IMG/VR virus record: IMGVR_UViG_3300028534_000006
Span: 1 to 47,546 of that record
Reading direction: 5' to 3' (one strand)
DNA from: a virus
Length of the DNA stretch: 47,546 nucleotides
A program made the position numbers and the translations under genes. The notes under the pieces are model-generated. The model searched no databases and had not been told where the DNA came from. It was given only the letters and a program-made list of their open reading frames with translations. Shown in pieces: positions 3,439-47,546 of the stretch. Numbering within the stretch: the first letter of the stretch is position 1; the number at the start of each line of letters is the position of its first letter.

Positions 3439-4113
3439 ATGGGTTTTTGGTCTTCAATAGGCACAGCTGCAGGCCTATTAGTAACTGGCGGTAATCCTGC
3501 TGGCGGAGCTATAGGCGGAGCTATAGGCGGAGCTATAGACAGTAGTGGTAAACAGAAAACACAACTAGATGCTTATACAGCGTATAAATTACAACGTGAG
3601 AAAAAATGGGAGGCTATGTTTGGGCCTATAGAAGAGAACTTAGTGTCTCATTATAACAACTTAAGTGCTACTAGCTATATAGCTAAAGGCAACGAGGCGT
3701 TAGAAAAACAATACACGCAGGCACAGCAACGGCTAAAACAAGAGCTTGCAAACCGCGGTTTAAACCTTGAAGGTGGCATTAGTTTAGGCGCGACAAATAA
3801 TATGTTGCAGAGCTTAGCAAGTAGTAAAGCTGAATTGTATGCGTCTGCGGATGATTACGTAGCTCAGCAACAACAACAATTTTATGCTAGTATGGCAGGT
3901 GCTAAACCTAATGCTGCAAGTGCTGTAAGTGCACAGTCACAACAAGACTTAGCTTGGCAGAAATATAATGATCAGCAAAGTCAAGCCGCTGTAGCAGGAG
4001 TTGTTGATATTTATGACAGATATAACAAATGGAAAATAGATAAAACTAAAACAGATACAAACACAACCACACCTACAGACCCGACTTTAAATTCTACAGG
4101 AGCTACAGGATGA
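3439..4113 (+). CDS. Putative internal virion protein with a Gly-rich N-terminus and Gln-rich centre.
   Basis: Strong RBS AAAGGAG. The N-terminus reads GGNPAGGAIGGAIGGAID, and the protein sits just upstream of the portal. Confidence 0.45.
   Translation: MGFWSSIGTAAGLLVTGGNPAGGAIGGAIGGAIDSSGKQKTQLDAYTAYKLQREKKWEAMFGPIEENLVSHYNNLSATSYIAKGNEALEKQYTQAQQRLKQELANRGLNLEGGISLGATNNMLQSLASSKAELYASADDYVAQQQQQFYASMAGAKPNAASAVSAQSQQDLAWQKYNDQQSQAAVAGVVDIYDRYNKWKIDKTKTDTNTTTPTDPTLNSTGATG
3502..3537 (+). repeat. In-frame 12-bp tandem repeat x3 (ggcggagctata), encoding GGAI x3.
   Basis: Three perfect units read directly from the sequence. Confidence 0.9.
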
Positions 4114-7649: not shown

Positions 7650-10600
7650 ATGGAGCAAAACAACGTACTTCCACAAGATGTAAACGATCAGTATACAGTA
7701 CAGCAAGATTATGGTTTTGGTAATAAAGTAGATATAGACCAGCACGGCAATCCTATACAACCGCAACAACAAGTGCAACAAACACCAGAGCAAGATACAG
7801 CGGACGCTTTATATGAAAAAATGTCTAAGTATGACTTTCAAGAAGCCTGGACTAAATATAAAGTATTTAAAGGTACACTGCTTAAAGGTGTGTCAGAAGA
7901 GTTACAGCCATTTGTAGCGGCTAATTTAAATAGTATTGAACAACATTTACGTAACAAGTACCGGGCTAGGCTACGTGCTGAGCTTAAGAAAATACCGTAT
8001 GATAGCTCTGATCGCGCAGAAGCTGAGCAACTATATAGAGACGCTCTACATAGAATGGCTGGTATTATGCCTGCTTCTAAAGTAGATGATTACGTAATTG
8101 ATGCTATAGGTGGCGGCACTATAGCTGCACCATTAAGAGCAGGTAGAATACTATTTAATAGGCTAACTGGTGATACAAAAGAAGCAAATGAATTACAAGT
8201 AGAAGCGAAAGAAATATCTGATGCGCAAAAACAATTTGGTACTGTATCACAAGTAGGTCCGTTAGAAATACCTCTTGATGGTAATATTCCTGCTATGTTT
8301 ATACCATTTAATAGCACAGTACGCGGTTGGACAATGCTAGCGGAAGCTATACAAGCAGATAAAACAGTTAAAGCATTAGGTAAAGCGCAGCCAGTACTTG
8401 ACAAGCTATGGACTGCTGGCAATTTGAGTAAAGTAGGTTTAGCTCGTAATACTGCATTTGGTGCTATGTTTGCGTATGGGTATGGCGCTGACTGGAAAGG
8501 TGCAGTAGTTGGTGGCGTGGCCGGTATGGTTATTCCAGCAGGCGCTTCAGCGATTGGTAAGACAGTCTCGCCCGTAATAACGCACTACTTAGGTACTGAT
8601 TTGGCTAAACAAGAGTTAAATTTAGCTAAGCTAGAGAAATCGGCCGGCGTAACTAAAGATGAGCTTACAACTATTTATAAACAGTATGCAGAGGATGCTA
8701 ATATAGATATGTCTGAGTTGACTCCGGCAGATAAAGCAACTGCTCTAAGAGCTAAATATGATAATATAGATCGCATACTTGCTGCGGCCAGTGAGTACTC
8801 GCCACAAGCACAACGTATTACAGAACAGAAGTCTAAAGAGGCTGTAGTTAAAGTAATGTCTAAACTCTTTGATATTAAACATATAGATGACCCTTCACCG
8901 GCTGGTTTAAAGAAGGCTGCTAAAGAACAAGTAGAAGAGCTTATAGCAGATATGCGCACAGCAATAAATCAAATAACCGATGATATCAGCACATATATAG
9001 CAGACTTTGCGGCTACTTCTAAAAAAGTAAAACTTGATACACCGGTATTTTCAGATGAAATTACTGGTAGTTTACGTAGAGCTATTGATGATATGGACCC
9101 GAAAGAACGTAGAGTATTACGTTCAGTAGAGAAGTTTTTAGACGATAAGCCTAGTATTGACAACTTAGCAGATATAACTAAACTAGAGCGCTTAATACCA
9201 GACAATTTAAAAGCTAGAGCTGAAACTACTAGTGGTATGCCTCTAGAGTCTATGTTTAATGATATTGCGTTTACACACTTAGATGAGTTTGCTTATTCTA
9301 AATACTCTACTATGAAAGATGCTGTTAAATTAAAAGACTGGATGCAAAGTGCCACTGGGCTTAGAACTATATTTAATAGTAATGCACCAACAGAGACAAA
9401 AGCCACTGCTTTACGTAAATTTATGTCTTCAGATAGTTATGCGCCATTAACTAAATTACTATCTGGTAAACAATTAGAGCAACTAGAGGATACTGCTTTT
9501 GCCTCATTATTTACTAAAGATGGTATACTTACTGAAACTGGTAGAGCTAACTTCTGGGCTCTATATAGAGACGCACGTCAAATGCATACAGTTACTGAGC
9601 GCGCAGCGCAAATGAAAGAGTTAATGGCTATGAATGCTAAATATATAGGTAGTAGTAAAATACGCCCTGGCACTAGAACTGAGTATGAGACTGGTAGTAA
9701 AGGTAGATCAAGTATTCAAGAAGAGATGCAGTCAAGGGCTATTGGTCATATTATTGCTTCAGTAATACAGCACTTCCCATTCGACTATGCTAGGCAAACT
9801 TATAATATACGTAATGGCATTAACCTACTTAAAGGTGAAAGAGTTTTTGATGTACGTAGCATAGACGACGCTAGAGTGCTTAGTATTATGGATAAAGCTT
9901 TAACACAGCAAGCAAGAGGTTTACAGGCTCTAAATATAAGTTCTGACTTAACCTACGAACAGTTATTGAGTAAATTGGATAGCGCCTACTTTGATGCTAG
10001 AAGTACTAAGACTACCAGAGCAGCAGCGGAACCTACATTTATGGCTAAAGAAGGCAACACAGATATATATGTACCACATGGTGCTCAAAATGAAGTATTT
10101 AATATACTTAAAACAGATATGAAATTTAATATCAAAAAGCCAGGCGAATATCCATTAAAAGAAGTAGTTCATTCTAAAGCTTTATCAGAGTCTAAAGTAT
10201 GGTCTGATTTGCGTGATTATAAAGTAGTTGTAACGCCTGACTCACCTACTAGGGTTGATGTACACGATAAGAAAATTTATTACAATACCTCAGATGATAA
10301 TGGTAAGCTAGTGCAGGAAATAGCCCATGCTATAGATTATTCAGATGGTAGACGTATAGTAGGTTCATCTGTAGGTATTGAGTGGAAAAATTTACAAAAA
10401 CAATACCCACAATTTGCTGACATATCGCCAGAGTTTATGGCTAATGCTAAGTGGAGTCACCAGTACGCAGTGCTTATGCAGAAATTAGGCGTTACGTCAA
10501 AAGATCAATTGACGCCTGAATTACGTAAACAGTTAAAAGAACTGTCGCCTATGTATAAGTATTTTACAAATGAAGGTGAGATTAGGACACTAGTTGCAGA

Positions 10601-11921
10601 GAAAGGAAATGTTAAAAATAAAGACGAAGTGCTTGAAACTATACGTGGACTTATGCAAAGAGCAGAAGAGTGGTCTGATAAAGCTATAGATGAAGCATTC
10701 AATTACTTAGATAGACAATTTGATGTGTCGGCTAAAGGTAATAAAGTAGATGATACTTATCATGCTGTACAAACTAGAAATTCTAATCCTGCTAATTTTA
10801 CTCAATATGATAATATATTAGCTGACTTAGACATGTTAGTGCTTAATGGTACCAGGAAAATGGACCCTGTGGCTTTGCTAGCATGGCTAAATAAACAAGG
10901 ATATTCAGACAACTACTTAAAAGATATAGGATTTGATGACTTAGTTCTAATGGAAGGCACTAAAGTATCAGTGCCCGCTATTATAACAAGACTAGAAGAC
11001 AAAATGTACTCAGGTAATATGACTAGGACGTACTATGGTACAGAAACACGATTTAGTACTACTATGGATAAAAGCCAACCGTCTAATATTGAGTTGTTAC
11101 CTGCGTTAGAAAATCATTATGAGCGCGTGTTTACTACTGATACTTATGACCTACCTGAGTCTATAACAGAACCTATGGAAACCCACTTTGGCTATTCTGA
11201 CTATAAGTCTCATGCTATATATCGTAATGTTAAATATAATAATGAAAAAGCTGTATATGTACAAGAGTTGCAAAATGACCTACTATCTGCAGGCATGTTT
11301 CCAGATACTGTAGATAAAGCAAAAGCTAAATTAGACAAAGCTATAGCTACAGGTGATGAGCAATTAATTAAGAAAGCTAAACAAGATTATGACTTTGCGG
11401 TAGAAAATGAGCAATTTAAACAGAATCAGTTTGAACGAGAAGATTTAGAAAATGAGCTTGACCGGCTTAACTCTGCTATGCCAAATGAAGACAGTATAGC
11501 GTACTCTGAGTGGGAAGATGAATATATTAATGTGGAACGTCAACTAGCAGAATTAAGTAATGAGAAACCATATGCAACTAAAGATGAAGTACGTAAATAT
11601 GTCGTAGATAAAACAGCTTATATACGTGACGCTATAAATGCTGCTATTAGTGATGCCATGTCTACAGATGCTAGGTATGTAGTACTACCTACTTCAGATG
11701 TAATGATACGTAGATATAATGATGAGCCAGGTAATGCATCTATGTACAAACGGTTGTATGATAAAGACATACCAAAAGTATTACGCAAGTATGCAAAAGC
11801 GCATAATTTAAAGCCGCCGTATAAAGACGGTGAAGTATGGGTTTTAGATATTAAGTCTGTAGCGAACCAAAAACTAGAGAATAAACGTACACAAGCAAAT
11901 GAGTGGTGGTTTAAAATGTAA
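7650..11921 (+). CDS. Very large virion-associated protein (1423 aa), possibly a polyvalent ejected protein.
   Basis: A single uninterrupted ORF directly after the portal. It has a hydrophobic Gly-rich segment (AVVGGVAGMVIPAGASAIG). No catalytic motif could be assigned with confidence. Confidence 0.4.
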   Translation: MEQNNVLPQDVNDQYTVQQDYGFGNKVDIDQHGNPIQPQQQVQQTPEQDTADALYEKMSKYDFQEAWTKYKVFKGTLLKGVSEELQPFVAANLNSIEQHLRNKYRARLRAELKKIPYDSSDRAEAEQLYRDALHRMAGIMPASKVDDYVIDAIGGGTIAAPLRAGRILFNRLTGDTKEANELQVEAKEISDAQKQFGTVSQVGPLEIPLDGNIPAMFIPFNSTVRGWTMLAEAIQADKTVKALGKAQPVLDKLWTAGNLSKVGLARNTAFGAMFAYGYGADWKGAVVGGVAGMVIPAGASAIGKTVSPVITHYLGTDLAKQELNLAKLEKSAGVTKDELTTIYKQYAEDANIDMSELTPADKATALRAKYDNIDRILAAASEYSPQAQRITEQKSKEAVVKVMSKLFDIKHIDDPSPAGLKKAAKEQVEELIADMRTAINQITDDISTYIADFAATSKKVKLDTPVFSDEITGSLRRAIDDMDPKERRVLRSVEKFLDDKPSIDNLADITKLERLIPDNLKARAETTSGMPLESMFNDIAFTHLDEFAYSKYSTMKDAVKLKDWMQSATGLRTIFNSNAPTETKATALRKFMSSDSYAPLTKLLSGKQLEQLEDTAFASLFTKDGILTETGRANFWALYRDARQMHTVTERAAQMKELMAMNAKYIGSSKIRPGTRTEYETGSKGRSSIQEEMQSRAIGHIIASVIQHFPFDYARQTYNIRNGINLLKGERVFDVRSIDDARVLSIMDKALTQQARGLQALNISSDLTYEQLLSKLDSAYFDARSTKTTRAAAEPTFMAKEGNTDIYVPHGAQNEVFNILKTDMKFNIKKPGEYPLKEVVHSKALSESKVWSDLRDYKVVVTPDSPTRVDVHDKKIYYNTSDDNGKLVQEIAHAIDYSDGRRIVGSSVGIEWKNLQKQYPQFADISPEFMANAKWSHQYAVLMQKLGVTSKDQLTPELRKQLKELSPMYKYFTNEGEIRTLVAEKGNVKNKDEVLETIRGLMQRAEEWSDKAIDEAFNYLDRQFDVSAKGNKVDDTYHAVQTRNSNPANFTQYDNILADLDMLVLNGTRKMDPVALLAWLNKQGYSDNYLKDIGFDDLVLMEGTKVSVPAIITRLEDKMYSGNMTRTYYGTETRFSTTMDKSQPSNIELLPALENHYERVFTTDTYDLPESITEPMETHFGYSDYKSHAIYRNVKYNNEKAVYVQELQNDLLSAGMFPDTVDKAKAKLDKAIATGDEQLIKKAKQDYDFAVENEQFKQNQFEREDLENELDRLNSAMPNEDSIAYSEWEDEYINVERQLAELSNEKPYATKDEVRKYVVDKTAYIRDAINAAISDAMSTDARYVVLPTSDVMIRRYNDEPGNASMYKRLYDKDIPKVLRKYAKAHNLKPPYKDGEVWVLDIKSVANQKLENKRTQANEWWFKM

Positions 11922-23100: not shown

Positions 23101-23150
23101 TTATAGACTTCGCCCATATTCAAACTTATAGACTTCGCCCATATTCAAAA
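23101..23150 (-). repeat. 25-bp tandem repeat x2 in the predicted 5' leader of the 203-aa gene.
   Basis: ttatagacttcgcccatattcaaa(c/a) occurs twice back to back, between the -10 box (23154-23162) and the RBS. Confidence 0.9.
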
Positions 23151-25771: not shown

Positions 25772-28700
25772 GTCGAGCTGCTGGCTAAACTTTTTGTTAT
25801 TTCTGCTCGCCAATCTAACGTAGAATTTAGTATTTTATCTGATAAATCTTTAAATGTAAGCTGTCCAACTGTCCTACTTATTAAATTGTATAATTCTGGT
25901 GTCATAAGTACTACATTATATTTATCTGCTAATTCTATCAACTTATCAGCACGCTTAGCTTTATACTCTAACTGAAACTCTTTCTTAATATCATTATGTA
26001 CATAAGTAGATACCCAATCTGTATTCTTTGACTGCTTTAAGTGGCTCTTATGTGGTAATAATAAATCATAGGCCAACGACTTAGTAAATCTACCGCGCTC
26101 ATGCCATGGACTTTGATCAATAGCTTTAAACATCTTATTTACTGTAGTAAAGTCATTCACTATGTCATTGACTTTCTTAAGCGACCATGGTTTTAAAGCG
26201 TATGGCATTTGGCATGCTCGCACATCCTCAAATGGCTGCACTAACTCATCAAATGTGACCTTTGAGCGCGCCCCCTCTGATAATGATATATTTATTAAAA
26301 ATGTAACATCTGCCCTATGTATGATTAGCCTATCGTCTTTTGCTGGCGAGTCGTCCAGCATATATAATATTGCGGGCCTATCAAGTATTGCTTGCAAATA
26401 CTCTTCCTCTCTATCATCAGAAGTATAGTCGAACATATCCGCAACCTCTAGTTTTTGTATATGATCTGACAGTGATTTGCTTGATGCTATGCTAGCCTCC
26501 TGGATTTGATGTTTTACTGGTGGGGTTGGAACTTCAGTTTTAAAGTATACCTCTAGTTCTGAGCGATTGTAATTATTATCAAACAACCATCTTAAGTATT
26601 TAGCAAAATTAAGTACGTCTTCATGCTCTGGTCGCATATGCCGTAGATCTGACTGTAGCTTATTTAGTACTTGTGAAGGCATATCCTGTGACCTCTTAAT
26701 TTCTATTGGAAACCACCTACGATCTTGCTTGTCTGGTATTTTAGGCATATAATTTGACGTCACAAGTACCATTAGGTCCAACTCTATCTCACGAATTGAC
26801 ATACCTTTACGCTCAATGGGATACCGTACTTTATAGTCACCAAGTATCTTCAATTTCTCATATAGTTCTGCACTTAGCTGTTGCTGCTTAAACTCAACCT
26901 CAGTAAGTGTGGCTATACGCATCTGGTCAAAGTTTGGACTAAAGCGCCCAACTACTTGCTTAGCTTGTACTTCTTGCGCTGTCTGCCCAAATAATAGGCG
27001 CGGTATCAGCGACGTCATGTTTGACTTACCTGCCCCCTGCTCACCATAAAACACATACACACCCATTGGCGACATGTGTTGGCTATATAATGCTATTGAT
27101 AACATAAAATGGAACCAAGTAAGCTGTGTGAATGGCGTATTATTGTGCATATATATTTGCTTGCCATGCCTATTGGTTATTACTGCTTCTGGTATACTAT
27201 AATAATATTGTTGCCATAGTATATTTGACTTAATTTCATCTATAGTTATATGCTCATTTTGTTGTACCATCTGAGCAGGTGTAGTAGGTATCTTATTATA
27301 TGTTGGTGGTTGCACTGTCAAATCCAACTGGCCTATTTGCTGGCGTTGTACTGAGGCTATTAATTGCACTGGCTCCAAAGTATGCAATTTGTCAAGTAGT
27401 TTATCCACCTGCTCTTTTGCCGCTTTCATCACTTTATTACGCGTTTTATAGTCTAGTGCGTCCACTGTCTCAGCACCATAGTGAGCAGCCATGTCATTTG
27501 CTTTTTTAATTTGTAAGTGCTTTTGCACAAACCTTGGCGATCTTAGGTCTATTTTATCTGTGGCTAATTGTAGCAGCACCTCATCTTGCTTTGGGTCATA
27601 CATAAAGTATGTAATCTCACCTAATGATGTAGTTGTCGGCAAGTAGTTGTACACTTTATTACCACGCATATACACCATCTCGTTATTTAGTGAGTACACA
27701 TTGAGGTTATGCTTATTCTTTTGCTGTAGTATATGCATTGTATCACCCGGCTGGCGGTATTGTATATGCGCACTTGGGTCTATTGACTCAGACACTGGAG
27801 CCTCTTCCTTAGGTAGCGTATTCTCAGCAAACGTCCAAAACTTAGCTAGATAGTTGTCGATTGTAAATTGTTTATACTGCGGCGCTGTAAGTATAAAGTC
27901 CTTTAGCCAAAATACTGCCAATGCTTGGCGCTCTTCCTCATCAAGTAATGTTTGTGAATAGCAGGCCAATGTTGCCGTCCTGTAGTAAGTATAATTATTC
28001 TCGAGCACTGGCATACCAATATTACGCATACTATTAACTAGTGTCGTCGGCGGTTTGTGATACTGTGTGACTTTGCGAGCTGCGTAGAATGCGTCTGCTT
28101 TCACATTTGCGTTGGCGTGTGTTGGTGCTGCTGGGTTGAATATGTTATTATAGATTGCGCATAGGCCTTCTGATGTGCACCCATCCTTTGACAACTTATT
28201 ATGCACTATTGGCGCCAACGGCGTACCCTCCAACTTTTTTAAGTCGTCGACTGTTAAATTGTAGCCATGGTGTACGAATGCTTGTATATAACCCGCTAGC
28301 TCTGCGTCAGTGTACGAATATAAATCGTCTGAAGTATAGTGATTTTGTGATGCTAGCTCCTCATTTGTCTTCTCCAGCAAGTAGGTGTTGATTATGTCAA
28401 TATCGGACTGAGTGAGTGTATGTAGCGGTTTGTTTTGAGCTATCCACTCATCTGACAACTCATCTTTAAGAGTACCTGTCTCTGCATCCCAATAGCGCAA
28501 ATACCCCTCAAACACAAATCCTGATGGCAAGTAGTCACCAACTATCTGTGTGCCGTTTATTGAAGTCTCGCTCGTCGTATCTCCTCGCGCTACTGAGGTC
28601 TCGCTCGTCGTATCTCCTCGCGCTACTGAAGTAGTTATCTTCGCTCTCTTAGGCCATATGTTATTTAGTGGTTCGTACTTAGTTATGTCTGGCACTTTGA

Positions 28701-29109
28701 ACCATATGTGCACTTTATCTTTTGAAGAGCCGTAAGTAATGAATGTATTTTTAACTGCTGGAAGTATTGATGCTAGCGCTTTGACGGCGTCTTTAGCATT
28801 TTTGTCTATATCTATGACTATAAACTCAGGTATTGTAGATTGTGACTGCTGTTCTAAGAACACACGAACTACGTGGTCACCTCGCCGTACATTACTACCT
28901 GGCTTAATTTTGAGGTTTTTGAACTCTTTCTTTGGCTTTAATTGTGTGAGTTCGCCCCCTCTTGATATAGATGTATTTAGATTAGACTGTCCTGTATAGT
29001 GTGGGTTTATGTCTACTGCGTGCTTTCTTAGCGCTGATTTTCTATCGTACGCTACTTTAGCTAAGTCTATATTAAGATTGGCTATTAAGTAGGTTAGAAT
29101 ATTTTGCAT
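25753..29109 (-). CDS. Bifunctional primase-polymerase (AEP) / SF3 (D5-like) helicase.
   Basis: AEP motifs FIVIDIDKN and KVHIWFKV. Walker A VFYGEQGAGKSN in the C-terminal half. The ATG at 29109 follows AAAGGAGAGG. The track start at 29166 lies at or near the predicted transcription start, so I reject it. Confidence 0.8.
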   Translation of the reverse strand: MQNILTYLIANLNIDLAKVAYDRKSALRKHAVDINPHYTGQSNLNTSISRGGELTQLKPKKEFKNLKIKPGSNVRRGDHVVRVFLEQQSQSTIPEFIVIDIDKNAKDAVKALASILPAVKNTFITYGSSKDKVHIWFKVPDITKYEPLNNIWPKRAKITTSVARGDTTSETSVARGDTTSETSINGTQIVGDYLPSGFVFEGYLRYWDAETGTLKDELSDEWIAQNKPLHTLTQSDIDIINTYLLEKTNEELASQNHYTSDDLYSYTDAELAGYIQAFVHHGYNLTVDDLKKLEGTPLAPIVHNKLSKDGCTSEGLCAIYNNIFNPAAPTHANANVKADAFYAARKVTQYHKPPTTLVNSMRNIGMPVLENNYTYYRTATLACYSQTLLDEEERQALAVFWLKDFILTAPQYKQFTIDNYLAKFWTFAENTLPKEEAPVSESIDPSAHIQYRQPGDTMHILQQKNKHNLNVYSLNNEMVYMRGNKVYNYLPTTTSLGEITYFMYDPKQDEVLLQLATDKIDLRSPRFVQKHLQIKKANDMAAHYGAETVDALDYKTRNKVMKAAKEQVDKLLDKLHTLEPVQLIASVQRQQIGQLDLTVQPPTYNKIPTTPAQMVQQNEHITIDEIKSNILWQQYYYSIPEAVITNRHGKQIYMHNNTPFTQLTWFHFMLSIALYSQHMSPMGVYVFYGEQGAGKSNMTSLIPRLLFGQTAQEVQAKQVVGRFSPNFDQMRIATLTEVEFKQQQLSAELYEKLKILGDYKVRYPIERKGMSIREIELDLMVLVTSNYMPKIPDKQDRRWFPIEIKRSQDMPSQVLNKLQSDLRHMRPEHEDVLNFAKYLRWLFDNNYNRSELEVYFKTEVPTPPVKHQIQEASIASSKSLSDHIQKLEVADMFDYTSDDREEEYLQAILDRPAILYMLDDSPAKDDRLIIHRADVTFLINISLSEGARSKVTFDELVQPFEDVRACQMPYALKPWSLKKVNDIVNDFTTVNKMFKAIDQSPWHERGRFTKSLAYDLLLPHKSHLKQSKNTDWVSTYVHNDIKKEFQLEYKAKRADKLIELADKYNVVLMTPELYNLISRTVGQLTFKDLSDKILNSTLDWRAEITKSLASSSTNEGLS
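28562..28627 (-). repeat. In-frame 33-bp tandem duplication inside the primase-helicase gene (protein repeat SVARGDTTSET x2).
   Basis: The two units differ at one base. The segment is visibly G+C-richer than its surroundings. Confidence 0.9.
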
Positions 29110-29181
29110 TGCCTCTCCTTTATAATATGTACAAAGTTTAAGATAACTGTAGTTTAGCAGGTTCAACTATCTTAATATTTT

Positions 29182-29213
29182 ATTATATCATAGTTTTGTT
29201 TAGACTAACATTA
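29182..29213 (-). promoter_or_regulatory. Phage-consensus promoter (TAATGTTAGTCTAAAC-N7-TGATATAAT) for the replication operon.
   Basis: Read on the minus strand, about 70 nt upstream of the ATG at 29109. Confidence 0.7.
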
Positions 29214-29428
29214 GGGATAAATTACAGGTTTCGCAAAGAATGAGGTAGTGGCCTTGTTGATAGAAATTGGTTCAAAAGTCGGTGCACTTTGCGCGGCGTT
29301 GGCTAAAAGCTGGGGCAATTCCATGGGTGTGCATAGTTTGCACCGAAACGGATTTTTTACGCTGAACCAGTGATTTGGTATACCTTTGTGCCATTGACCC
29401 GTATTCAGCTTTAAAGTGTGAAAGTAGA

Positions 29429-29457
29429 TAATGTTAGTTTAGATATTGATATATAAT
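29429..29457 (+). promoter_or_regulatory. Weaker promoter-like copy (TAATGTTAGTTTAGAT, with TATAAT at 29452-29457).
   Basis: The 16-mer matches well, but the spacing to TATAAT is 2-3 nt shorter than in the other copies. It would transcribe the non-coding stretch 29465-29800. Confidence 0.35.
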
Positions 29458-29726
29458 ATCCCTTATATATATATTTATTTTATTTTAAATTTAATATATA
29501 AATAAAATAATATTAATATAATTGAACCCGGTGTAGATATATAAAAAATTTCACCTCTATATACAGCGAAGTTAAAACCCATATCCCCTAAAAATTCAAT
29601 GTTTTTCTGCGCGGCGGGATAGCGAGTGTAGTTATCCCGTGCTTCCTAGTTTTGCCCCAGTTTTTCTCGAGATTTGCGTAGTATGTAGACTGCTGCCTCC
29701 TCGCTACTTTGAGGCCGTACTTGTCA

Positions 29727-29796
29727 GTGGTGGACAGCCTGCGTGTAGTGGGCAGCCTGCGTGCGGTGGACCGCCTGCGTGCGGTGGACCGCCTGC
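29727..29796 (+). repeat. G+C-rich tandem repeat of about 18 bp, roughly 4 units (GGTGGACCGCCTGCGTGC), abutting the promoter at 29797.
   Basis: gtggtggacagcctgcgtgta / gtgggcagcctgcgtgc / ggtggaccgcctgcgtgc / ggtggaccgcctgc, read directly from the sequence. Confidence 0.9.
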
Positions 29797-29828
29797 TAAT
29801 GTTAGTTTAAGCAAAATTTTGATATAAT
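29797..29828 (+). promoter_or_regulatory. Phage-consensus promoter (perfect TAATGTTAGTTTAAGC-N7-TGATATAAT) for the early plus-strand genes.
   Basis: About 55 nt upstream of the ATG at 29885. Confidence 0.7.
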
Positions 29829-29884
29829 ATAAATATAAATACGAGTGAAGTGCTCGTGTATATAAATTACCTACTAAAGGACAC

Positions 29885-30421
29885 ATGATGTACAAGAAAT
29901 TTGAAATCTCTGAGTTGACTGAGCTAGAAGTGGCTAATCTACAACCTGCTATAACACACAAAGGCTACTTGTATGTGCCTACTTATATAGTAGAATTTGC
30001 CGTAGCCGAGTTTAATATGAAAGTTAAGCCACAAGATGCTGACTACTATGTAGTCGAGTTTCTTGAAGAGTGGACACAGGAGACTGAAGATATTTTATGT
30101 GACATTCAAGTAGAGACTCTATCACAAGTGTACTTAGTAAATAATAAATTGGTAGTACCAGAGCAATGGTTATCAACTGTGCAAGCATTCTTAGTTAATA
30201 AGACATATGTAGCAAGTAGTCATAATACTTGTAACAAGATTGTAAGTGCCGCCAATGGTAAGATGTATGAAGTTTACATGTACTTTACTAGTGAGACAGA
30301 TAAATGGGTAATTTATGCAGAGGCTGACGACAAGTTTACTGTATTTTGGTGGCTTGGTAGTGAGGAGCCAAGCTCAGAGACTTTAATCGAGCGACTTACT
30401 AATATTGATATTTGGCATTAA
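29885..30421 (+). CDS. Acidic early protein of unknown function (178 aa).
   Basis: RBS AAAGGA. It is Glu/Asp-rich and is the first gene after a consensus promoter. Confidence 0.7.
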   Translation: MMYKKFEISELTELEVANLQPAITHKGYLYVPTYIVEFAVAEFNMKVKPQDADYYVVEFLEEWTQETEDILCDIQVETLSQVYLVNNKLVVPEQWLSTVQAFLVNKTYVASSHNTCNKIVSAANGKMYEVYMYFTSETDKWVIYAEADDKFTVFWWLGSEEPSSETLIERLTNIDIWH

Positions 30422-30430
30422 GACTCTTAC

Positions 30431-30462
30431 TAATGTTAGTTTAAGCAAAATTATGATATAAT
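30431..30462 (+). promoter_or_regulatory. Phage-consensus promoter (perfect TAATGTTAGTTTAAGC-N7-TGATATAAT).
   Basis: It lies between the two early genes, about 58 nt upstream of the ATG at 30520. Confidence 0.7.
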
Positions 30463-30519
30463 ATAATATAAATAAGTATTTAACTACTTGTTTATAAAAA
30501 AACTTATAAAGGATGCATT

Positions 30520-30864
30520 ATGCAGAAACTTACTATTTTAATTGATATGGACAACATACCACCAAGTGACTTAGGAGCTTTGGTTGCAAGCCTTACAGCC
30601 ACACATTCGGATGTTACTTTAAAATGTGACCAATTTATACAATATGACGCTTATGATGATGGGCCACTTGTACTTATGCATATCGATGTAACTGCAGCAG
30701 ATGAATGGACACTTGATGATATTGTGTCTACCTTGCAGCTACTTGAAAAGAGACAACCTGAGGTATTTAAGCATGTACGTATGTCACAAGATGCACAAGA
30801 TACGTGTGATTTAATTATATCATTATATCATGCTGCATATCCAGAGGCTATAATTTGTCAATAG
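30520..30864 (+). CDS. Strongly acidic early protein of unknown function (114 aa).
   Basis: RBS AAAGGA. Many Asp/Glu and few Lys/Arg residues. Followed by a terminator. Confidence 0.7.
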   Translation: MQKLTILIDMDNIPPSDLGALVASLTATHSDVTLKCDQFIQYDAYDDGPLVLMHIDVTAADEWTLDDIVSTLQLLEKRQPEVFKHVRMSQDAQDTCDLIISLYHAAYPEAIICQ

Positions 30865-30870
30865 CATATA

Positions 30871-30897
30871 AGCAAGTAATAATAACTATTACTTGCT
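30871..30897 (+). terminator. Intrinsic terminator of the early plus-strand unit (11-bp perfect stem).
   Basis: agcaagtaata-ataac-tattacttgct followed by gcttatt. It starts 7 nt after the stop codon. Confidence 0.6.
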
Positions 30898-30910
30898 GCT
30901 TATTAATATT

Positions 30911-31054
30911 AGGCACTTGCGCAGGTAGTATATACAGCTTGCGCAAGTGGAACTGCTTATTGTTAGGTAGTGATACCCAGCTGCTTACAGTTGCAACTTA
31001 ATATTCTCGGAATTCGTGAGAGGCCTACTACAAACACTACTTGCGCAGGTGCCT
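30911..31054 (+). ncRNA. Candidate structured RNA (about 145 nt) closed by a 19-bp stem.
   Basis: 30911-30929 pairs with 31036-31054 over 19 consecutive positions, two of which are G-U only on the plus-strand transcript. There are internal palindromes (cttgcgcaag, cagctg, gttgcaac) and no ORF. It sits between two terminators. Confidence 0.4.
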
Positions 31055-31070
31055 AAATATTATAAAAAAT

Positions 31071-31099
31071 AAGTGACCAGTCTTTTTGACTAGTCACTT
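31071..31099 (-). terminator. Intrinsic terminator of the 134-aa gene.
   Basis: The minus-strand RNA reads AAGUGACUAG-UCAAAAAGA-CUGGUCACUU followed by AUUUUUUAU. Confidence 0.7.
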
Positions 31100-31102
31100 A
31101 AT

Positions 31103-31118
31103 AAATTGTCAAGTGTTG
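31103..31118. repeat. Left arm of a perfect 16-bp inverted repeat flanking the 134-aa gene.
   Basis: aaattgtcaagtgttg is the exact reverse complement of 31586-31601. Confidence 0.9.
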
Positions 31119-31125
31119 AAGTAGC

Positions 31126-31530
31126 TTAGTTTAATTCTTTGATAAGTTTCAATTGATCTTTAGTGAAGCCTGTATCATCAAACTCGTGCTTGATTGACTC
31201 AAGATGTTTTATATCTTTCTTGATGGCTTCAATATCTGCATCTTCGTCAAAAGCGGATGCTTTCAACTTTTCAATGTCTCTAGTTACTTTCTTAAGATGA
31301 GACTCAGCAAATCTGCAGTGACTGTAGTAACCGTCTTTTGCTCTTGAATTTCTTGGGAATACTTCAATTGGCTCATATCGTTTGTGTCTTGAGCACCACT
31401 TAGCTATGATTTTGTCGCCATCATAGATTGGAGCATGTGCCCTAGTGTCATTGTGTGCATGTGCAATCTCTAGAACTTTCATAGCCTGATCTTCAGTTAG
31501 CCCAATTTCAAGTAATTGTTTCTTAGTCAT
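31126..31530 (-). CDS. Small protein of unknown function (134 aa) with a C-x2-H ... H-C pattern, in a monocistronic unit.
   Basis: RBS AAAAGGA. WCSRHKRYEPIEVFPRNSRAKDGYYSHC could be a zinc-binding element. It has its own terminator and is flanked by the 16-bp inverted repeat. Confidence 0.7.
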   Translation of the reverse strand: MTKKQLLEIGLTEDQAMKVLEIAHAHNDTRAHAPIYDGDKIIAKWCSRHKRYEPIEVFPRNSRAKDGYYSHCRFAESHLKKVTRDIEKLKASAFDEDADIEAIKKDIKHLESIKHEFDDTGFTKDQLKLIKELN

Positions 31531-31585
31531 TTTTGTATCCTTTTTAGTGTGATTTTTGATTGTTTCAGATTAATGATTATTTAAA

Positions 31586-31601
31586 CAACACTTGACAATT
31601 T
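31586..31601. repeat. Right arm of the 16-bp inverted repeat.
   Basis: caacacttgacaattt. It overlaps tandem TTGACA hexamers (31593-31598 and 31605-31610). Confidence 0.9.
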
Positions 31602-31824
31602 TATTGACAATGATAAATTAAAGAACAATTATATATAAAAAATAAGTTTAAATTTTATATATAAATAAATTATATATATTCTTATTTTTTATATAATAAT
31701 ATTATAGCATAAATTATATTAAATTTATATTAATTCGCTGCATAAATATATAAATAAATTAAATATATTCGTTACTTATTTTAAATTTTATTTAAATTTC
31801 TGTATTAATACTAATCTATTTATT

Positions 31825-31856
31825 TAATCGAATTTTAATAATAATTATGATATAAT
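31825..31856 (+). promoter_or_regulatory. Promoter-like site inside the AT-rich non-coding region (TAATCGAATTTTAATA-N7-TGATATAAT).
   Basis: The extended -10 is perfect and the upstream 16-mer matches the family consensus at 10 of 16 positions. It points toward the tandem repeats at 32121-32390. Confidence 0.35.
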
Positions 31857-31871
31857 GCAAATATTTAAATA

Positions 31872-31953
31872 AATATTAAATAAATAAATTAGTGTCGATA
31901 TTTAAGATTAAATTAATATACATAAAATTAATATTAAATAAATAAATTAGTGT
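31872..31953 (+). repeat. 24-bp AT-rich direct repeat x2 (aatattaaataaataaattagtgt) with a 58-bp period.
   Basis: The copies are at 31872-31895 and 31930-31953, and each is followed by (c/a)(g/a)atatttaa. Confidence 0.85.
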
Positions 31954-32120
31954 AAATATTTAATATTTGTTTAATAATAAGGCTATTTTAATCTGCAATA
32001 ATAATTAAAATAGTGAAGCTATTTAAATAAATTTAAGGTGGCTATCTTAATTAATTAAATATACCCCCAGGGTGCATCAAAAAATTAAATATGCTGCGAC
32101 CGGCCGAGGTTTACCGAGGC

Positions 32121-32390
32121 GCCACCACGAAAAATTTTTCATAGCTTTTTATTATAGGTAAGATTTTTCTTACCTGCCTCACTATAAATGCCACCGCAAA
32201 AAATTTTTCATAGCTTTTTATTATAGGTAAGATTTTCTACCTAACTCACTATAAATGCCACCAGCTGCTATTGCTTTTTATTATAGGTAAGGTTTTCTTA
32301 CCTAACACTATAAATAATAATGCAGTATATAAATATGTCACCACGAAAAATTTTTCATAGCTTTTTATTATAGGTAAGATTTTTCTTGCC
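32121..32390 (+). repeat. Four tandem direct repeats of about 67-80 bp. Each has GCCACC, an A5T5 palindrome, and an AGGTAAG-N6-CTTACCT hairpin.
   Basis: The units start at 32121, 32190, 32257 and 32337. The shared core is catagctttttattataggtaagatttttcttacct..cactataaat. Unit 3 lacks the gaaaaatttttc palindrome. Confidence 0.9.
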
Positions 32391-32568
32391 ATTTTTGTTT
32401 TTCATATAAATACTGTATATGTTTTTGTAGCGCAGTATTAAGTGCATAAGTAATAGTAGTATCAATACATTTACCTATAGCCATTTTACCATTACGTACG
32501 ACGTCTTTACGAATTAGGTAGGTAATAGGCAGCGTATATAATATTTTTCCGGTAATTTTAGAAAGTTT

Positions 32569-32684
32569 AAACTAAGTTTAAATATAAATTTTAATTTTAA
32601 GGCCAATTAGGCCTAGGCCCTATAAAACCCCTTAGTTGAGCTTAGTTTGGCCAATACGGGCCCATTTTGAAGTCCTATGGGCTA
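32569..32684. repeat. Copy C of the three-copy intergenic element (right half degenerate).
   Basis: Its left 54 bp are identical to copy B. It begins about 25 nt beyond the stop codon of the large terminase gene. Confidence 0.85.
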
Positions 32685-32709
32685 TATATAAATTTTTTTA
32701 TTATATCAA

Positions 32710-34332
32710 TTATATCCCACCTGCCCGTTTAAGTCGTCGACGGCGTGCCTCTATAGTTTTACGACGTTGTTTTATGCTAGCATTGCTTTTTTCCGAAGTA
32801 TCGATTACTTTACGCTTTTTAGTATGCTTGAGCCCCATTACACCAGTTCTTAGAGCATCAGCCATATGCGACCAAAAGTTGTGCTTTGGTGTAGTTTTTG
32901 CTAGTTGTAGTTTTTCGTCCCATTCCTTCACATAGTTGATGAGCATTTTACGCACCATTGTACAACTCTCATCAATTTGTGTGACTGGTAAGTACTGTCT
33001 GACTCTGTCGATACCGTCCATAAGGCCAGATCTCTTCACTACTTCTACGCGGAAACCTTCCTCTATAAATGCCTGCTTCCTGGTTTTCTTGTCATTTAGC
33101 GAGCGGACCATAGCATCGTGTGGTAAGTACACCTTCTCAATTTCCCATTCTCGACGACGCATAAGATCACAATAATAAGGAATAGCCTCGTCTGAGGCGT
33201 AATCTTCGCCGATAATACGCAAGTCATCACCTACTTCTTGTAGGTAAACAACACAAAATAGGTCTGTTTCTGAGATGCCCAAGTCAACAGCAGCGTAGAC
33301 AGGCAGCGCTGGCTCATAAAGCCCCTTAACAATGCCACCGCGCTGCTCAATAAAGTGGAGGTACTTGGCGTAAAACGATAGTTCGAGGGCTGCTTGGAAG
33401 GCCTCATCGGCGGTAGTTGGGTACTCTTTTGTAATTCGTGGCCCCAATCTACGCTTCTTGGCAATGTAGAAGTTTTTCTTGCGTTGATCGGTGATGCCGT
33501 GCCGTATAAAATATAACTCCTCCTCCTTGGTGCAAGGCTGATACACGTCGTTGACGCAGTCTGGGTCGTCAACCCACGATAAAAATATAGGCAAAAAATC
33601 TTCAGGTGAGCGCTGCTCATCAGGTATACTTGTGGCCTCATCCCACATAGCCTTAAATTTATCTTCGCCTTCAGCTGTTGACTCAATACAAATATTATTA
33701 CCGCGCCGTGGGGCGCATGCCTCTAGTGAGCCAGATATAATCTCATGGGCTTTGTCCGGATACTTACTTGCCGTCTTACCAAATTCAGATACGTGGAGGT
33801 CGTGCAGAGTGGCAGATCTGAACGACGTACGAATGTAAATATTACTATCATTGCTAAATGCCTGCTTGGTGGTGCTATCGGCAACACGCTCAAGGCCACC
33901 CAAAGCGTACATTTTGTAGTTGTCGTCCAAATTTTCCCATAATCTCTTGACGCGTTCAAGCAGTGTGGCTGATTCCTCACGGCCTTGGGCCTGCATACCA
34001 ACAGTGAAGTGCGGTATGTGTATGGCATCATCAAAGTAGTCAACTAAATAGTACGTGCTTATACCACGCTGGCGCGATTTGAGGATTAGCTGGCGGCCAT
34101 GTGTCTGGCGCTTACTGTACACCTCTAGTTGGGCTTCATTCATAATAAATGGGACGAGCTGACCCTCTTTATTAACAACTTTGTACAGATTATTTAGGCG
34201 CCACAACTTACTTGGAGCATAATTTTTGAGCATGTCATCAAAATTATCAGGCTCAGTGTAAAAAACCCACAAATAATCTTTTACTTGCGGCACTAGCTCA
34301 ACTAGTCGATCTTGTGAGACGCTCATAGCCAT
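32710..34332 (-). CDS. terL: Terminase large subunit.
   Basis: Walker A-like LILKSRQRGIST and Walker B-like LHDLHVSEFG. C-terminal RNaseH-like nuclease motifs AAVDLGISETD and VYLPHDA. The ATG at 34332 lies 1 nt after the terS stop. The track start at 34404 would overlap terS by 71 nt. Confidence 0.85.
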   Translation of the reverse strand: MAMSVSQDRLVELVPQVKDYLWVFYTEPDNFDDMLKNYAPSKLWRLNNLYKVVNKEGQLVPFIMNEAQLEVYSKRQTHGRQLILKSRQRGISTYYLVDYFDDAIHIPHFTVGMQAQGREESATLLERVKRLWENLDDNYKMYALGGLERVADSTTKQAFSNDSNIYIRTSFRSATLHDLHVSEFGKTASKYPDKAHEIISGSLEACAPRRGNNICIESTAEGEDKFKAMWDEATSIPDEQRSPEDFLPIFLSWVDDPDCVNDVYQPCTKEEELYFIRHGITDQRKKNFYIAKKRRLGPRITKEYPTTADEAFQAALELSFYAKYLHFIEQRGGIVKGLYEPALPVYAAVDLGISETDLFCVVYLQEVGDDLRIIGEDYASDEAIPYYCDLMRRREWEIEKVYLPHDAMVRSLNDKKTRKQAFIEEGFRVEVVKRSGLMDGIDRVRQYLPVTQIDESCTMVRKMLINYVKEWDEKLQLAKTTPKHNFWSHMADALRTGVMGLKHTKKRKVIDTSEKSNASIKQRRKTIEARRRRLKRAGGI

Positions 34333-34333
34333 A

Positions 34334-34789
34334 TTAAACTCTTTGTGAGGTAATGGCAGGCATACTTGTGAAGTTATTAACCTGTACTTGTGGGCCTGTG
34401 GCAAACATAGCCTTGCGCATCATAACAAAACCTTGTATTATTGTGAGCATCTCAACAGCACTATCACAGTTACTTACTTGTACAGCAAGCTTATTGATGA
34501 TATCATTTGCCAAACGCTGCATATTCTCATCAAGGCGCTGTAGGCCATGTAGTTCCTCGACGAAATCAACACCAAGCTTCTCAGCGGCATTAATTAACTC
34601 TTTATTTTTTACAAGTTTATCGACAGCTCTGTCTATGTCTGCTTCTACTTGTGTGTCCAAACTAGCCAATTCGTCATAACGAGTAGGTGTGATACCGTAC
34701 TTGTCAATAACAAATTGCCGTGGTGTGCCTTTTTGTATGGCGGCAATAATTGCCATATCTTCACGTGTAAATGGTTTTTTCTTTGCCAT
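34334..34789 (-). CDS. Terminase small subunit (putative).
   Basis: It lies directly upstream of terL. N-terminal HTH-like segment FTREDMAIIAAIQKGTPRQFVIDKYGITPTRY. The ATG at 34789 follows GAGG. Confidence 0.55.
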   Translation of the reverse strand: MAKKKPFTREDMAIIAAIQKGTPRQFVIDKYGITPTRYDELASLDTQVEADIDRAVDKLVKNKELINAAEKLGVDFVEELHGLQRLDENMQRLANDIINKLAVQVSNCDSAVEMLTIIQGFVMMRKAMFATGPQVQVNNFTSMPAITSQRV

Positions 34790-34897
34790 ATCTACCTCAT
34801 CATGCATTAGAATATAAAACATTATATAGCAATACTTGTCAAGCTTACTTTAAATATAAATTTTAATAATATAATTTAATATTCGTTTAAGCTAATT

Positions 34898-34928
34898 TAA
34901 TGTTAGTTTAAGCGATTTATGGTATAAT
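34898..34928 (+). promoter_or_regulatory. Phage-consensus promoter (TAATGTTAGTTTAAGC-N6-TGGTATAAT) for the late/structural block.
   Basis: About 30 nt upstream of the ATG at 34960. A second CGTTTAAGC half-motif lies at 34884-34892. Confidence 0.7.
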
Positions 34929-34959
34929 ATAACTATTAGTTTATACAAAGGGATAGTAT

Positions 34960-35505
34960 ATGGACGCAGAAGAGGCATTGAAAGCAGTACAGGCGGCGCA
35001 TAAAGCACTACATGATACAAAAGCATACGCAACGAAACTTGCGCAAGAACTAGCAGCTAAAAACGCTGAAATCGAGGTTTTTGAGACGGTAGGCGTGAAG
35101 GTGCCAAAAGAGATTGATGCGCTCAAGGAGTCCGACCCTGAGAAGTACGCGACTGAACTAGAGAAGTATAAGCAGAAATTGGAGCAAGAGCGACAAAAGA
35201 AAGCTGATGAGGCAAAAGCACAGGCATTAAAACAGATGCTGAATGACGCAGCACAAAATGCAGGCTTAAAAGATGACTTGACAAAACTAGTGCCGCCAGT
35301 AGTGATTGAGCAATATGAGAGTGGTAAAATAGATGCGACAAGAGTAGTTGAACTAGCACAACAATATGAGAAGGCCGCAAAGTCGGTGACGTCTCCTACT
35401 ACTACGGAAGAGTTTGATTTAACCACCGTAGCAGGGGCAGATTTTGTGCCTTCGCAAAAACGCGAGGCTGATGAAACTTTAAATCCTAGAGACTATATTC
35501 TCTAA
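34960..35505 (+). CDS. Scaffolding protein (putative).
   Basis: 181 aa, highly helical and charged (Ala/Glu/Lys-rich), directly upstream of the major capsid gene. Confidence 0.55.
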   Translation: MDAEEALKAVQAAHKALHDTKAYATKLAQELAAKNAEIEVFETVGVKVPKEIDALKESDPEKYATELEKYKQKLEQERQKKADEAKAQALKQMLNDAAQNAGLKDDLTKLVPPVVIEQYESGKIDATRVVELAQQYEKAAKSVTSPTTTEEFDLTTVAGADFVPSQKREADETLNPRDYIL

Positions 35506-46717: not shown

Positions 46718-47508
46718 CGTATGAAACATATAACAAGTTATCAAAAGACGTAAAGAAAAAACTTTTAAATGAAAAAATACTTGAACTTAGAAATCTTTGG
46801 GATGTTACGCTAGGAGCAAATCCAACATATGATCAGTTGGCTGCAGTACAAAAATGGGCATTGAGTCATTTTGATTATACACCTGATGGTTATCAGTTTA
46901 ATAAGGAAGACATGTGGGATCCACTCGCATTTGAAAAGATGCTTTTAGTCGATAAATTAAAAGACGATTGCGACGGTTTTGGATATGCAATACTTGGTAT
47001 TATGTATCATGTATTCGGAATGAAAAAACAGGATATATACCGTGTATCATGTGCAACAGAAACAAATGAAGGACATTTTGTTGCATGGGTTAGATCAAAA
47101 TCAGGTATAGTATACCAACTTGAAAACAGAGTTCGTAAACCGCGTACAATAAAATATATGAGAGAGCTTGGATATGAATACTGGCATTACAGCCCTATGA
47201 CAAATGTAGGGCAATGGTTTAATGCAAAAAAGAAAGCTGCTGAATTTGTGTATGATACTCCAATTAAAGCTGCAGGCAACGAACCCGAGCTAAATGTAGG
47301 AACTATGATCAAAGCAACACCAAAGTCAAAAACATTGATGTTTGGTTGGTTAGATAAACTGATTACTACAAGTATCGGAACATTAGGTGCTCTTGCTACA
47401 CAGGCTGACTGGAAAGTAGTCGCTGCAATAGGTGGCTACGCGGTAGTTACACTAGTTGTTATTTATATTATTAGGGCGATGACTAATGAGCCTCTTGAGT
47501 TTAAATAA
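46714..47508 (+). CDS. Transglutaminase-like / papain-fold cysteine peptidase domain protein with a C-terminal TM anchor.
   Basis: DDCDGFGYAILG (Cys) ... EGHFVAWV (His) ... QLEN fits a Cys-His-acid triad arrangement. C-terminal TM helix VVAAIGGYAVVTLVVIYII. It lies directly upstream of the spanin genes across the closure point. Confidence 0.45.
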   Translation: MTYETYNKLSKDVKKKLLNEKILELRNLWDVTLGANPTYDQLAAVQKWALSHFDYTPDGYQFNKEDMWDPLAFEKMLLVDKLKDDCDGFGYAILGIMYHVFGMKKQDIYRVSCATETNEGHFVAWVRSKSGIVYQLENRVRKPRTIKYMRELGYEYWHYSPMTNVGQWFNAKKKAAEFVYDTPIKAAGNEPELNVGTMIKATPKSKTLMFGWLDKLITTSIGTLGALATQADWKVVAAIGGYAVVTLVVIYIIRAMTNEPLEFK

Positions 47509-47546
47509 ACCATTATTAGTAATGTTAGCCGTGTCATTAGTTGCTA
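47420..47546. repeat. Second copy of the 127-bp terminal overlap.
   Basis: Identical by eye to 1-127. Confidence 0.95.

Follow-up and report, generated by a model that had tools for sequence, protein, structure and literature searches.

The 47,546-nt viral sequence IMGVR_UViG_3300028534_000006, analysed over its whole length and called the window below, carries a tandem array of four units at 32121-32402, in the non-coding stretch between terL, the gene of the large terminase subunit, and the first early gene. Comparison with related phages indicates that this array most likely arose by amplification of a DNA element that acts in cis where the right and left genome ends join. More specifically, an A/T core of the AnTn type, (G)GAAAAATTTT(T), and a G/C-run block could form a bend or terminase-docking module (cosB- or pac-like) beside a cleavage or terminus site, amplified in a lineage-specific manner. 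This narrower proposal is held tentatively, since binding, cutting and the physical end are all inferred. It builds on the observed anatomy of the array, the conservation of the core, its fixed spacing from the block, the turnover of the arrays and a layout found throughout the clade.

The block and the four units are arranged as follows.

32064 to 32128: spacer and G/C-run block (GC-2), conserved, minus strand GGTGGCGCCTCGGTAAACCTCGGCCGG...GATGCACCCTGGGGG, with the G/C run at 32064-32074.
32121 to 32189: repeat unit 1, 69 bp, the copy nearest to the G+C block.
32129 to 32140: core of unit 1, GAAAAATTTTTC, perfect over 12 bp.
32156 to 32175: hairpin of unit 1, AGGTAAG-ATTTTT-CTTACCT, perfect.
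32190 to 32256: repeat unit 2, 67 bp, with an A6T5 core at 32198-32209.
32225 to 32242: hairpin of unit 2, with the 3' arm short by one base.
32257 to 32336: repeat unit 3, 80 bp, with agctgctatt in place of the A/T core and a 21-bp unique tail.
32285 to 32303: hairpin of unit 3, perfect.
32337 to 32402: repeat unit 4, truncated, about 66 bp, with the core GAAAAATTTTTC at 32345-32356.
32372 to 32391: hairpin of unit 4, with one arm base different (CTTGCC), giving a T-G pair on the plus strand, and then ATTTTTGTTTTT.

The four tandem units described in an initial annotation of this DNA were borne out. Tandem Repeats Finder reported 32121-32263 (period 69, 2.1 copies, 90% matches, score 240), and a repeat search detected a 29-nt core four times, at 32141, 32210, 32270 and 32357 (at least 93% identical, spacings of 69, 60 and 87), together with 52-nt copies at 32123, 32192 and 32339, that is, in units 1, 2 and 4. 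All four occurrences of TTATTATAGGTAAG in the 47.5-kb window, and all three of exact CACTATAAAT, fall inside the array. The G+C-rich patch with CCGAGG twice was also present as described (32104-32109 and 32114-32119).

Other details of that annotation held only in part. The 12-bp A/T palindrome, rightly said to be missing from unit 3, is perfect in units 1 and 4 only, and the hairpin presented as conserved is perfect in units 1 and 3 but altered in the other two. The reported lack of a U-tract after the hairpins applies on either strand to units 1-3; the hairpin of unit 4, followed by its T-run, is terminator-like on the plus strand, and this is the only unit that qualifies as an intrinsic terminator. 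A minus-strand open reading frame (ORF) of 47 codons (32249-32392) does cover units 3 and 4, although it is not conserved, as the annotation had stated for any ORF over the units. Finally, the array had been placed next to terL; it starts about 320 nt past the stop codon (32710) and does not abut the gene.

Other identities considered for the units were discarded. Promoters for a phage polymerase (CACTATAAAT resembles the -7 to +3 region of T7-type promoters) do not recur beyond chance elsewhere in the window, and the 30 larger ORFs scanned there included no phage RNA polymerase. Tandem sigma-70 promoters, based on a minus-strand TATAAT in each unit, lack a conserved -35 element, and the units of the relatives L001 and L002 have no -10 element there. 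A CRISPR-like mini-array or RNA anti-CRISPR was rejected, as unique spacers are absent from the units and Rfam gave no CRISPR-DR match, and a degenerate coding repeat was rejected because the reading frames differ between units.

The comparison of copy number among relatives that had been suggested as a check was made on seven contigs found through their TerL homologues (59-86% TerL identity), all with the same gene order as the window. Read in the terL sense, which is the minus strand of the window, all seven had an array at the same place, in 1 to at least 6 copies. The units are 10-114 bp long and unrelated in sequence, and the only sequence common to the arrays is the core, 10-13 nt in length. 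Thus L001 has two 104-bp units, L002 two 114-bp units plus 20-bp repeats, L003 20-bp repeats and one core, L005 five cores at 40-104 bp spacing plus 10-bp repeats, L006 at least six units of about 70-85 bp in an array broken by a scaffold gap, and L007 two cores 10 bp apart. The more distant L008 (45% TerL identity) has a single TTTAATAAATTTATTAAA palindrome. L003 and L004 have an identical TerL and differ nearby by one 20-bp repeat copy; therefore, the arrays turn over quickly, whereas the core persists and keeps its distance to the block.

This distance was measured from the proximal core, the one nearest to the early genes, to the G/C run, and amounts to 66, 68, 66, 63, 61 and 61 bp in six genomes. 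In the seventh, L003, reading of the sequence placed a degenerate core about 65 bp from the run. In contrast, distal cores are spaced by 10 to 362 bp. The sequence of the run is CACCCTGGGGG in the window and TACCCCCGCCCC in L006, while L001 and L005 share TACCCGGGGG; the run is the candidate for the site of cleavage or of the terminus.

In the window and in L001, L002 and L007, a small inverted repeat precedes the core by 12-30 nt, with arms that differ among genomes (GGTAAG/CTTACC, GGATAA/TTATCC, TTAATT/AATTAA). In shuffled windows, stems of six or more pairs, two or more of them G-C, have a frequency of 2%; upstream of the cores, L005 has weak stems only (at most six pairs, one of them G-C) and L006 none.

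The same layout extends to more distant members of the clade. Among isolates, those closest in TerL (36-42% identity) were Pseudoalteromonas phage PH1, Vibrio phage VPMS1, Dickeya phage Amaethon and the Edwardsiella Kafunavirus phages KF-1, IW-1, ETP-1 and ZHX, all with the same synteny and with a gap of 500-960 bp after terL. Within this gap, terL is followed by A/T palindromes with AAATTT at their centre, then by the G+C block, an array of short lineage-specific repeats and the early promoters. One to four of the palindromes are present (TTAATAAATTTATTAA or TTATTAAATTTAATAA), often followed by a CTG..(G)AAATTTT element. As L073 contains both motif types, 30 nt apart, the GAAAAATTTTTC units of the window would correspond to the second element, amplified. 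The G+C block of the cultured relatives is of the type GGTCCGGT/GCCTAGGG (GGACTGTCGCCGGGGCCCTAG in PH1, GGTCCGGTGCCTAGGGTCCCCC in ZHX), and the short-repeat arrays consist of about twenty CTGGACGTCTA at 8- or 16-bp spacing in PH1 and of GTGACTATMAC in Amaethon. Multi-copy units also occur in the Kafunavirus group, with three of 58 bp in PH1, three to four in VPMS1 and four in L085.

Many of the 80 metagenome loci, and IMG/VR loci as well, show this order of features. At least one A/T palindrome centred on AATT lies within 1.5 kb after terL in 58 of 79 loci, and such palindromes number 114 per 59.4 kb in the first 800 nt after terL vs 46 per 102.5 kb further downstream, an enrichment of about four-fold; palindromes centred on TTAA, ATAT or TATA are not enriched in those 800 nt. 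The centre is AnTn in all cases and never TnAn, AnTn reportedly being the curved, narrow-groove arrangement (Hagerman 1986). A pattern scan of IMG/VR with AATAAATTTATT-N(40-68)-GACTGTC was abandoned, all 12 inspected hits lying in unrelated, apparently coding sequence.

Two further observations bear on the terminase and on the block. The small terminase subunit, TerS, has a clear helix-turn-helix in the Kafunavirus group, with the recognition helix S-x-x-T-V-x-R-W, and in the alignment about 13 residues are missing at this helix in the clade of the window; the same clade has GGAAAAATTTT arrays instead of repeated TTAATAAATTTATTAA. In addition, the GenBank record of ETP-1 is broken inside the G+C block, between ...GGCGGTCCGGT and GCCTAGGGTCCCC..., and its ends abut exactly when compared to ZHX, which is the single hint of a physical end. 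The chance of a random break within a few bases of the block is well under 1%.

The C-run in the block has three residues in KF-1 and IW-1, four in ETP-1 and five in ZHX, in surroundings (500 bp) that are about 98% identical, and it is the only length polymorphism inside the block among KF-1, IW-1 and ZHX. This may reflect either an error in sequencing the homopolymer or genuine variation at an end of the DNA.

The position of the array relative to the genes and to the other junction elements is given below.

34334 to 34822, minus strand: terS, small terminase subunit.
32710 to 34404, minus strand: terL, large terminase subunit, the last gene before the junction, transcribed toward the array.
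31531 to 32709: non-coding stretch of 1179 bp between the terL stop codon and the first early gene, which houses the array.
32556 to 32619: palindrome GGCCTAGGCC (32610-32619) and A/T block (minus strand CCTTAAAATTAAAATTTATATTTAAAC), past the terL stop codon.
31620 to 32060: second repeat-bearing stretch ('array B'), 10.9% G+C, with repeats of its own at intervals of about 58 bp and motifs of the GATAGCC type.
31701 to 31709, minus strand: early promoter, extended -10 TGCTATAAT then ATTATTATA, directed to the first early gene.
31126 to 31530, minus strand: first early gene, encoding a zinc-ribbon-like protein of 134 amino acids.

In the packaging model suggested by this layout, the functional unit would have two parts, an AnTn tract, of a sequence type that is intrinsically bent with a narrow minor groove, and the G/C-run block about six helical turns from it. 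The small terminase subunit would dock on the AnTn element or elements on the terL side, or be positioned by them, possibly with the participation of a host architectural protein, and the large subunit would cut at or near the block. From the block, packaging would run through terL and terS to the structural genes. In a short-tailed lytic phage, the end with the early genes needs to exit the capsid first and should therefore be packaged last, which places the start of packaging on the terL side. With terL last before the junction and the early genes after it, the array and its AnTn elements are on the side where packaging would be expected to start. Units 2-4, the distal copies, would stem from lineage-specific tandem duplications and would add docking or bending sites.

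Of the three roles proposed in the initial annotation (origin iterons, packaging or terminal sites, and a repeat RNA), packaging fits the comparative anatomy best and is the best supported, by the position on the terL side of the G/C-run block, the 61-68 bp spacing, a T7-like layout and the break in the ETP-1 record. As in cos and pac regions, repeated or bent-type elements lie beside a conserved candidate cleavage block and adjoin the terminase genes.

Several points weigh against this role. The window is a circular assembly, in which any terminal repeat collapses, and no integration host factor (IHF) consensus was found in the junction region. Unit 3 is without a core; therefore, not all units can be functional. 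The co-variation with TerS represents a single evolutionary event and is confounded by phylogeny, and the ETP-1 break is one record, labelled circular. No end of the metagenome or IMG/VR contigs examined sits at the G/C block, whereas many lie within the second repeat array, suggesting assembly breaks induced by repeats; contig ends were discarded as a proxy for physical ends on these grounds. Well-studied headful phages usually have pac in or near terS. Finally, the N-terminal half of TerL is closest to 933W-type terminases, which are grouped with headful packagers in the Nahant Collection paper (PMC6029569). Cleavage of a cos site assisted by an HNH protein, as in HK97, was also considered and rejected: an HNH motif is absent from the neighbouring 134-residue protein, for which Pfam gave no significant match.

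Compared to known systems, the junction as proposed here resembles the cos region of lambda (cosN; cosB with R3-I1-R2-R1) in having repeated or bent docking elements between a conserved cleavage site and the terminase genes, in bending as part of the design and in a proximal element at a set distance from the cut site. It differs from it in that the terminase genes are transcribed toward the site and not away from it, in having AnTn palindromes in place of R boxes, with no IHF consensus found, and in a TerL that is not lambda-like.

The concatemer junction of T7 (gene 19, short repeats, 160-bp terminal repeat, short repeats, A1-A3) has the same order of features: terL is followed by about 650 bp, the 160-bp terminal repeat, CCTAAAG short repeats and the early promoters, of which A1 and A2 are included in the 700 nt fetched. 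Inside the T7 junction, in the terminal repeat, there is also an inverted repeat of a C-run and a G-run (CCCCCATAGGGGG), adjoined by short lineage-specific repeat arrays. However, the window has no phage promoters and no phage RNA polymerase among the 30 larger ORFs scanned, its TerL relatives are of the Kafunavirus-group, 933W and VP2/HTVC010P types, and AnTn palindrome units are absent from T7.

In SPP1 pac (pacL-pacC-pacR) and P1 pac, repeated boxes for the small terminase subunit on intrinsically bent DNA flank the cleavage region, and the copies cooperate. The likeness to the window is one of layout only, in the several repeated elements beside a candidate cleavage region; the sites of SPP1 and P1 overlap or precede the terminase genes and serve headful packaging with imprecise cuts, and the box sequences are unrelated.

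Two other accounts of the repeats as DNA were weighed. The AnTn units and the G+C block may be sites for initiator binding or bending beside an A/T-rich unwinding element at 31620-32060, with initiation by the primase-helicase or by transcription from the early promoter, but this seems unlikely. Iteron origins (lambda ori, plasmid oriV) likewise have direct repeats with A-tract bending beside an A/T-rich stretch, and the A/T-rich flank described in the initial annotation was confirmed, with 440 bp of 10.9% G+C adjoining the array. In all seven relatives, the 400 nt past the G+C block have 11-30% G+C vs 35-38% genome-wide. The phage also encodes replication proteins of its own (DUF5906 primase-helicase, family A polymerase, gp2.5-like single-stranded DNA-binding protein and helicases), and the T7 promoters annotated as phiOL and phiOR, which are associated with secondary origins, occupy the same end regions. 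On the other hand, upstream regions of early promoters are A/T-rich anyway, the palindromes hug the terL end in most relatives, and units of 67-80 bp that turn over wholesale between close relatives are unlike iterons of 17-22 bp. No DnaA box (TTATCCACA) was found within one mismatch in 31531-32709; such boxes, present in the units of L001 (TTATCCACT), were set aside, as neither the window nor most of the relatives have them. A set closer to typical iterons consists of four 18-bp direct repeats (GGTGGACAGCCTGCGTGC) at 29729-29796, between the start of the primase-helicase gene, upstream of which it lies, and a divergent plus-strand gene (context 29167-29884), flanked by an A/T-rich stretch at 29440-29525. 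Comparable short repeats precede the primase gene in L003 (9590-9669) and L002 (9854-9902), and L005 has about 700 bp of 7-bp repeats at that site; the set in the window is a candidate for a classical iteron-like origin or an operator. The origin-iteron claim retains some weight through its A/T-rich neighbour but is otherwise weakened. Alternatively, function would reside in the proximal core and the G+C block only, and slippage or unequal recombination in a repeat-prone non-coding junction would have produced the array as a neutral side effect. The copy number falling as low as one in L003 and L008, the lost core of unit 3, the single-copy difference between L003 and L004, a general richness of these genomes in non-coding tandem repeats (as at the primase site of L005) and a spacing that is fixed for the proximal copy only are all in keeping with neutrality. 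However, core-bearing multi-copy arrays with differing unit structures appear in at least five of the seven lineages and again in the Kafunavirus group, which suggests that extra copies are favoured and argues mildly against this account, judged doubtful on balance.

The remaining accounts place the function in RNA. It is improbable that the hairpins and A/T palindromes mark a transcription boundary, terminating or stabilizing the late terS-terL transcript or blocking read-through between late and early genes. In some relatives the first palindrome is indeed a long perfect hairpin followed by a T-run, as with the 32-nt palindrome of L023, L025 and L075 or GTGCTTTATATAAATTTATTAAAGCAC+ATTTTTAT of L024, and the hairpin of unit 4 with its T-run is terminator-like on the plus strand. 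Each strand also folds better than shuffled sequence (z = -3.9 and -4.4), a result that is to be expected from the palindromes and does not discriminate between strands. However, the terL-sense hairpins of the window are six-pair stems without U-tracts after them, the A5T5 core is unable to form a stable RNA hairpin, upstream stems are weak in L005 and lacking in L006, the array begins 320 nt past the stop codon, and the fixed spacing to the G+C block is left unexplained. A role in termination or at the mRNA end is thus plausible for some relatives but does not fit the units of the window. A transcribed repeat RNA, either a decoy or an array like the ToxI-type antitoxins of type III systems, is very improbable. 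An extended -10 (TGATATAAT, plus strand, 31848-31856) points toward the array, the terminator-like site closes unit 4 on the same strand, the T-G pair in the stem of this unit would be tolerated only in plus-strand RNA, and ToxI-type arrays are also tandem repeats with small hairpins in a non-coding stretch. In contrast to those systems, the promoter-repeat-terminator-toxin layout is missing: no toxin-like ORF follows the array on either strand, the plus-strand side running into the convergent 3' end of terL and the next minus-strand ORF, that of the 134-residue protein, being 590 nt away. The plus-strand promoter-like site is not conserved in L001, L002 and L005, the relatives keep a 10-13-nt DNA core and no conserved unit sequence or fold, and the covariance models of Rfam 15 gave no match at E <= 1 in 29000-35500. 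The claim of a repeat RNA or type III antitoxin was dropped on this basis.

The genome that harbours the array is that of a lytic, podovirus-like phage with 37% G+C over the whole window. Nucleotides 1-127 are identical to 47420-47546; with this 127-bp end overlap the contig is a circular assembly, and the genome has a true length of about 47,419 bp (about 47.4 kb). The minus strand carries a run of genes from 34822 down to 12078, which starts with terS, terL, the small early gene, the DUF5906 primase-helicase and a Dda-like helicase, and continues with the gp2.5-like single-stranded DNA-binding protein, family A DNA polymerase, exonuclease, thymidylate synthase, ligase, dCMP deaminase and a helicase; it is interrupted by two small plus-strand ORFs (29885-30864). 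The plus-strand genes, which run from 34960 over the assembly break as far as 11921, are among others those of the major capsid protein, the portal and an internal virion protein. An ORF of 1423 amino acids in this structural region (plus strand, 7650-11921) had no PHROGs match. A PHROGs scan of the 30 larger ORFs detected neither an integrase nor an RNA polymerase, and ARAGORN detected no tRNA or tmRNA in the window.

No close relatives at the DNA level were found among deposited phages or in IMG/VR. The best annotated TerL matches are Kafunavirus-group phages (36-42%), followed by phages of the 933W type for the N-terminal half and of the VP2/HTVC010P type for the C-terminal half; by best matches TerL is neither T7-family nor lambda-like, and the terminase had no matches by sequence to solved structures. 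For the 134-residue early protein, the PHROGs matches were weak only (E about 1e-5), to families annotated as HNH endonuclease and Lar-like restriction alleviation. A small early protein with the C-terminal domain of the RNA polymerase alpha subunit (PF03118) is encoded in L008 (11096-11560) and also in L010.

The early promoter in front of the first early gene of the window (minus strand, 31692-31709, TGCTATAATATTATTATA) is found as the same element in L001 (3988), L002 (8296) and L006 (7908). A perfect 16-bp inverted repeat, AAATTGTCAAGTGTTG / CAACACTTGACAATTT at 31103-31118 and 31586-31601, brackets the gene, and its right arm bears two plus-strand TTGACA hexamers. Where the window has array B, the relatives have lineage-specific short-repeat arrays. 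The island at 32556-32619 is kept in L001, L002, L003 and L005, and is possibly a terL terminator or a remnant of the clade-wide TTAAATTTAA palindrome. Tandem repeats were also present elsewhere in the window: 2.2 copies of 33 bp within the primase-helicase ORF (28561-28632), two perfect copies of 25 bp in an intergenic gap (23101-23149) and 3.1 perfect copies of 12 bp in an ORF of the structural region (3502-3538).

A literature search returned no description of this junction architecture, or of packaging signals or genome ends for this phage group, and nothing was reported on the termini of KF-1, IW-1, ETP-1, VPMS1 and Amaethon in what was searchable. The junction is a variant of known packaging or terminus control regions and not a new class. 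There is only a slim likelihood that AnTn core, fixed spacer and G/C-run block are an undescribed, clade-wide module of Kafunavirus-like podophages in which the AnTn element is amplified under selection, with copy number an evolvable trait and not noise. Such amplification might tune terminase loading; alternatively, it might equip the genome end packaged first with a DNA decoy or sink for a host protein, be it a minor-groove or nucleoid-binding protein or one of defence.

The phages concerned are marine and enteric podophages, a group both widespread and little studied, for which the conserved, recognizable set of motifs at the junction offers a concrete site for terminus mapping and a landmark to orient metagenome-assembled genomes. 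A short bent-type element at a fixed distance from a candidate cut site, with a copy number that varies naturally, makes this a tractable system for the way in which a terminase finds its start site. For the engineering of the cultured relatives, among them the Edwardsiella, Vibrio and Dickeya phages proposed for biocontrol, the junction marks a region to be left undisturbed.

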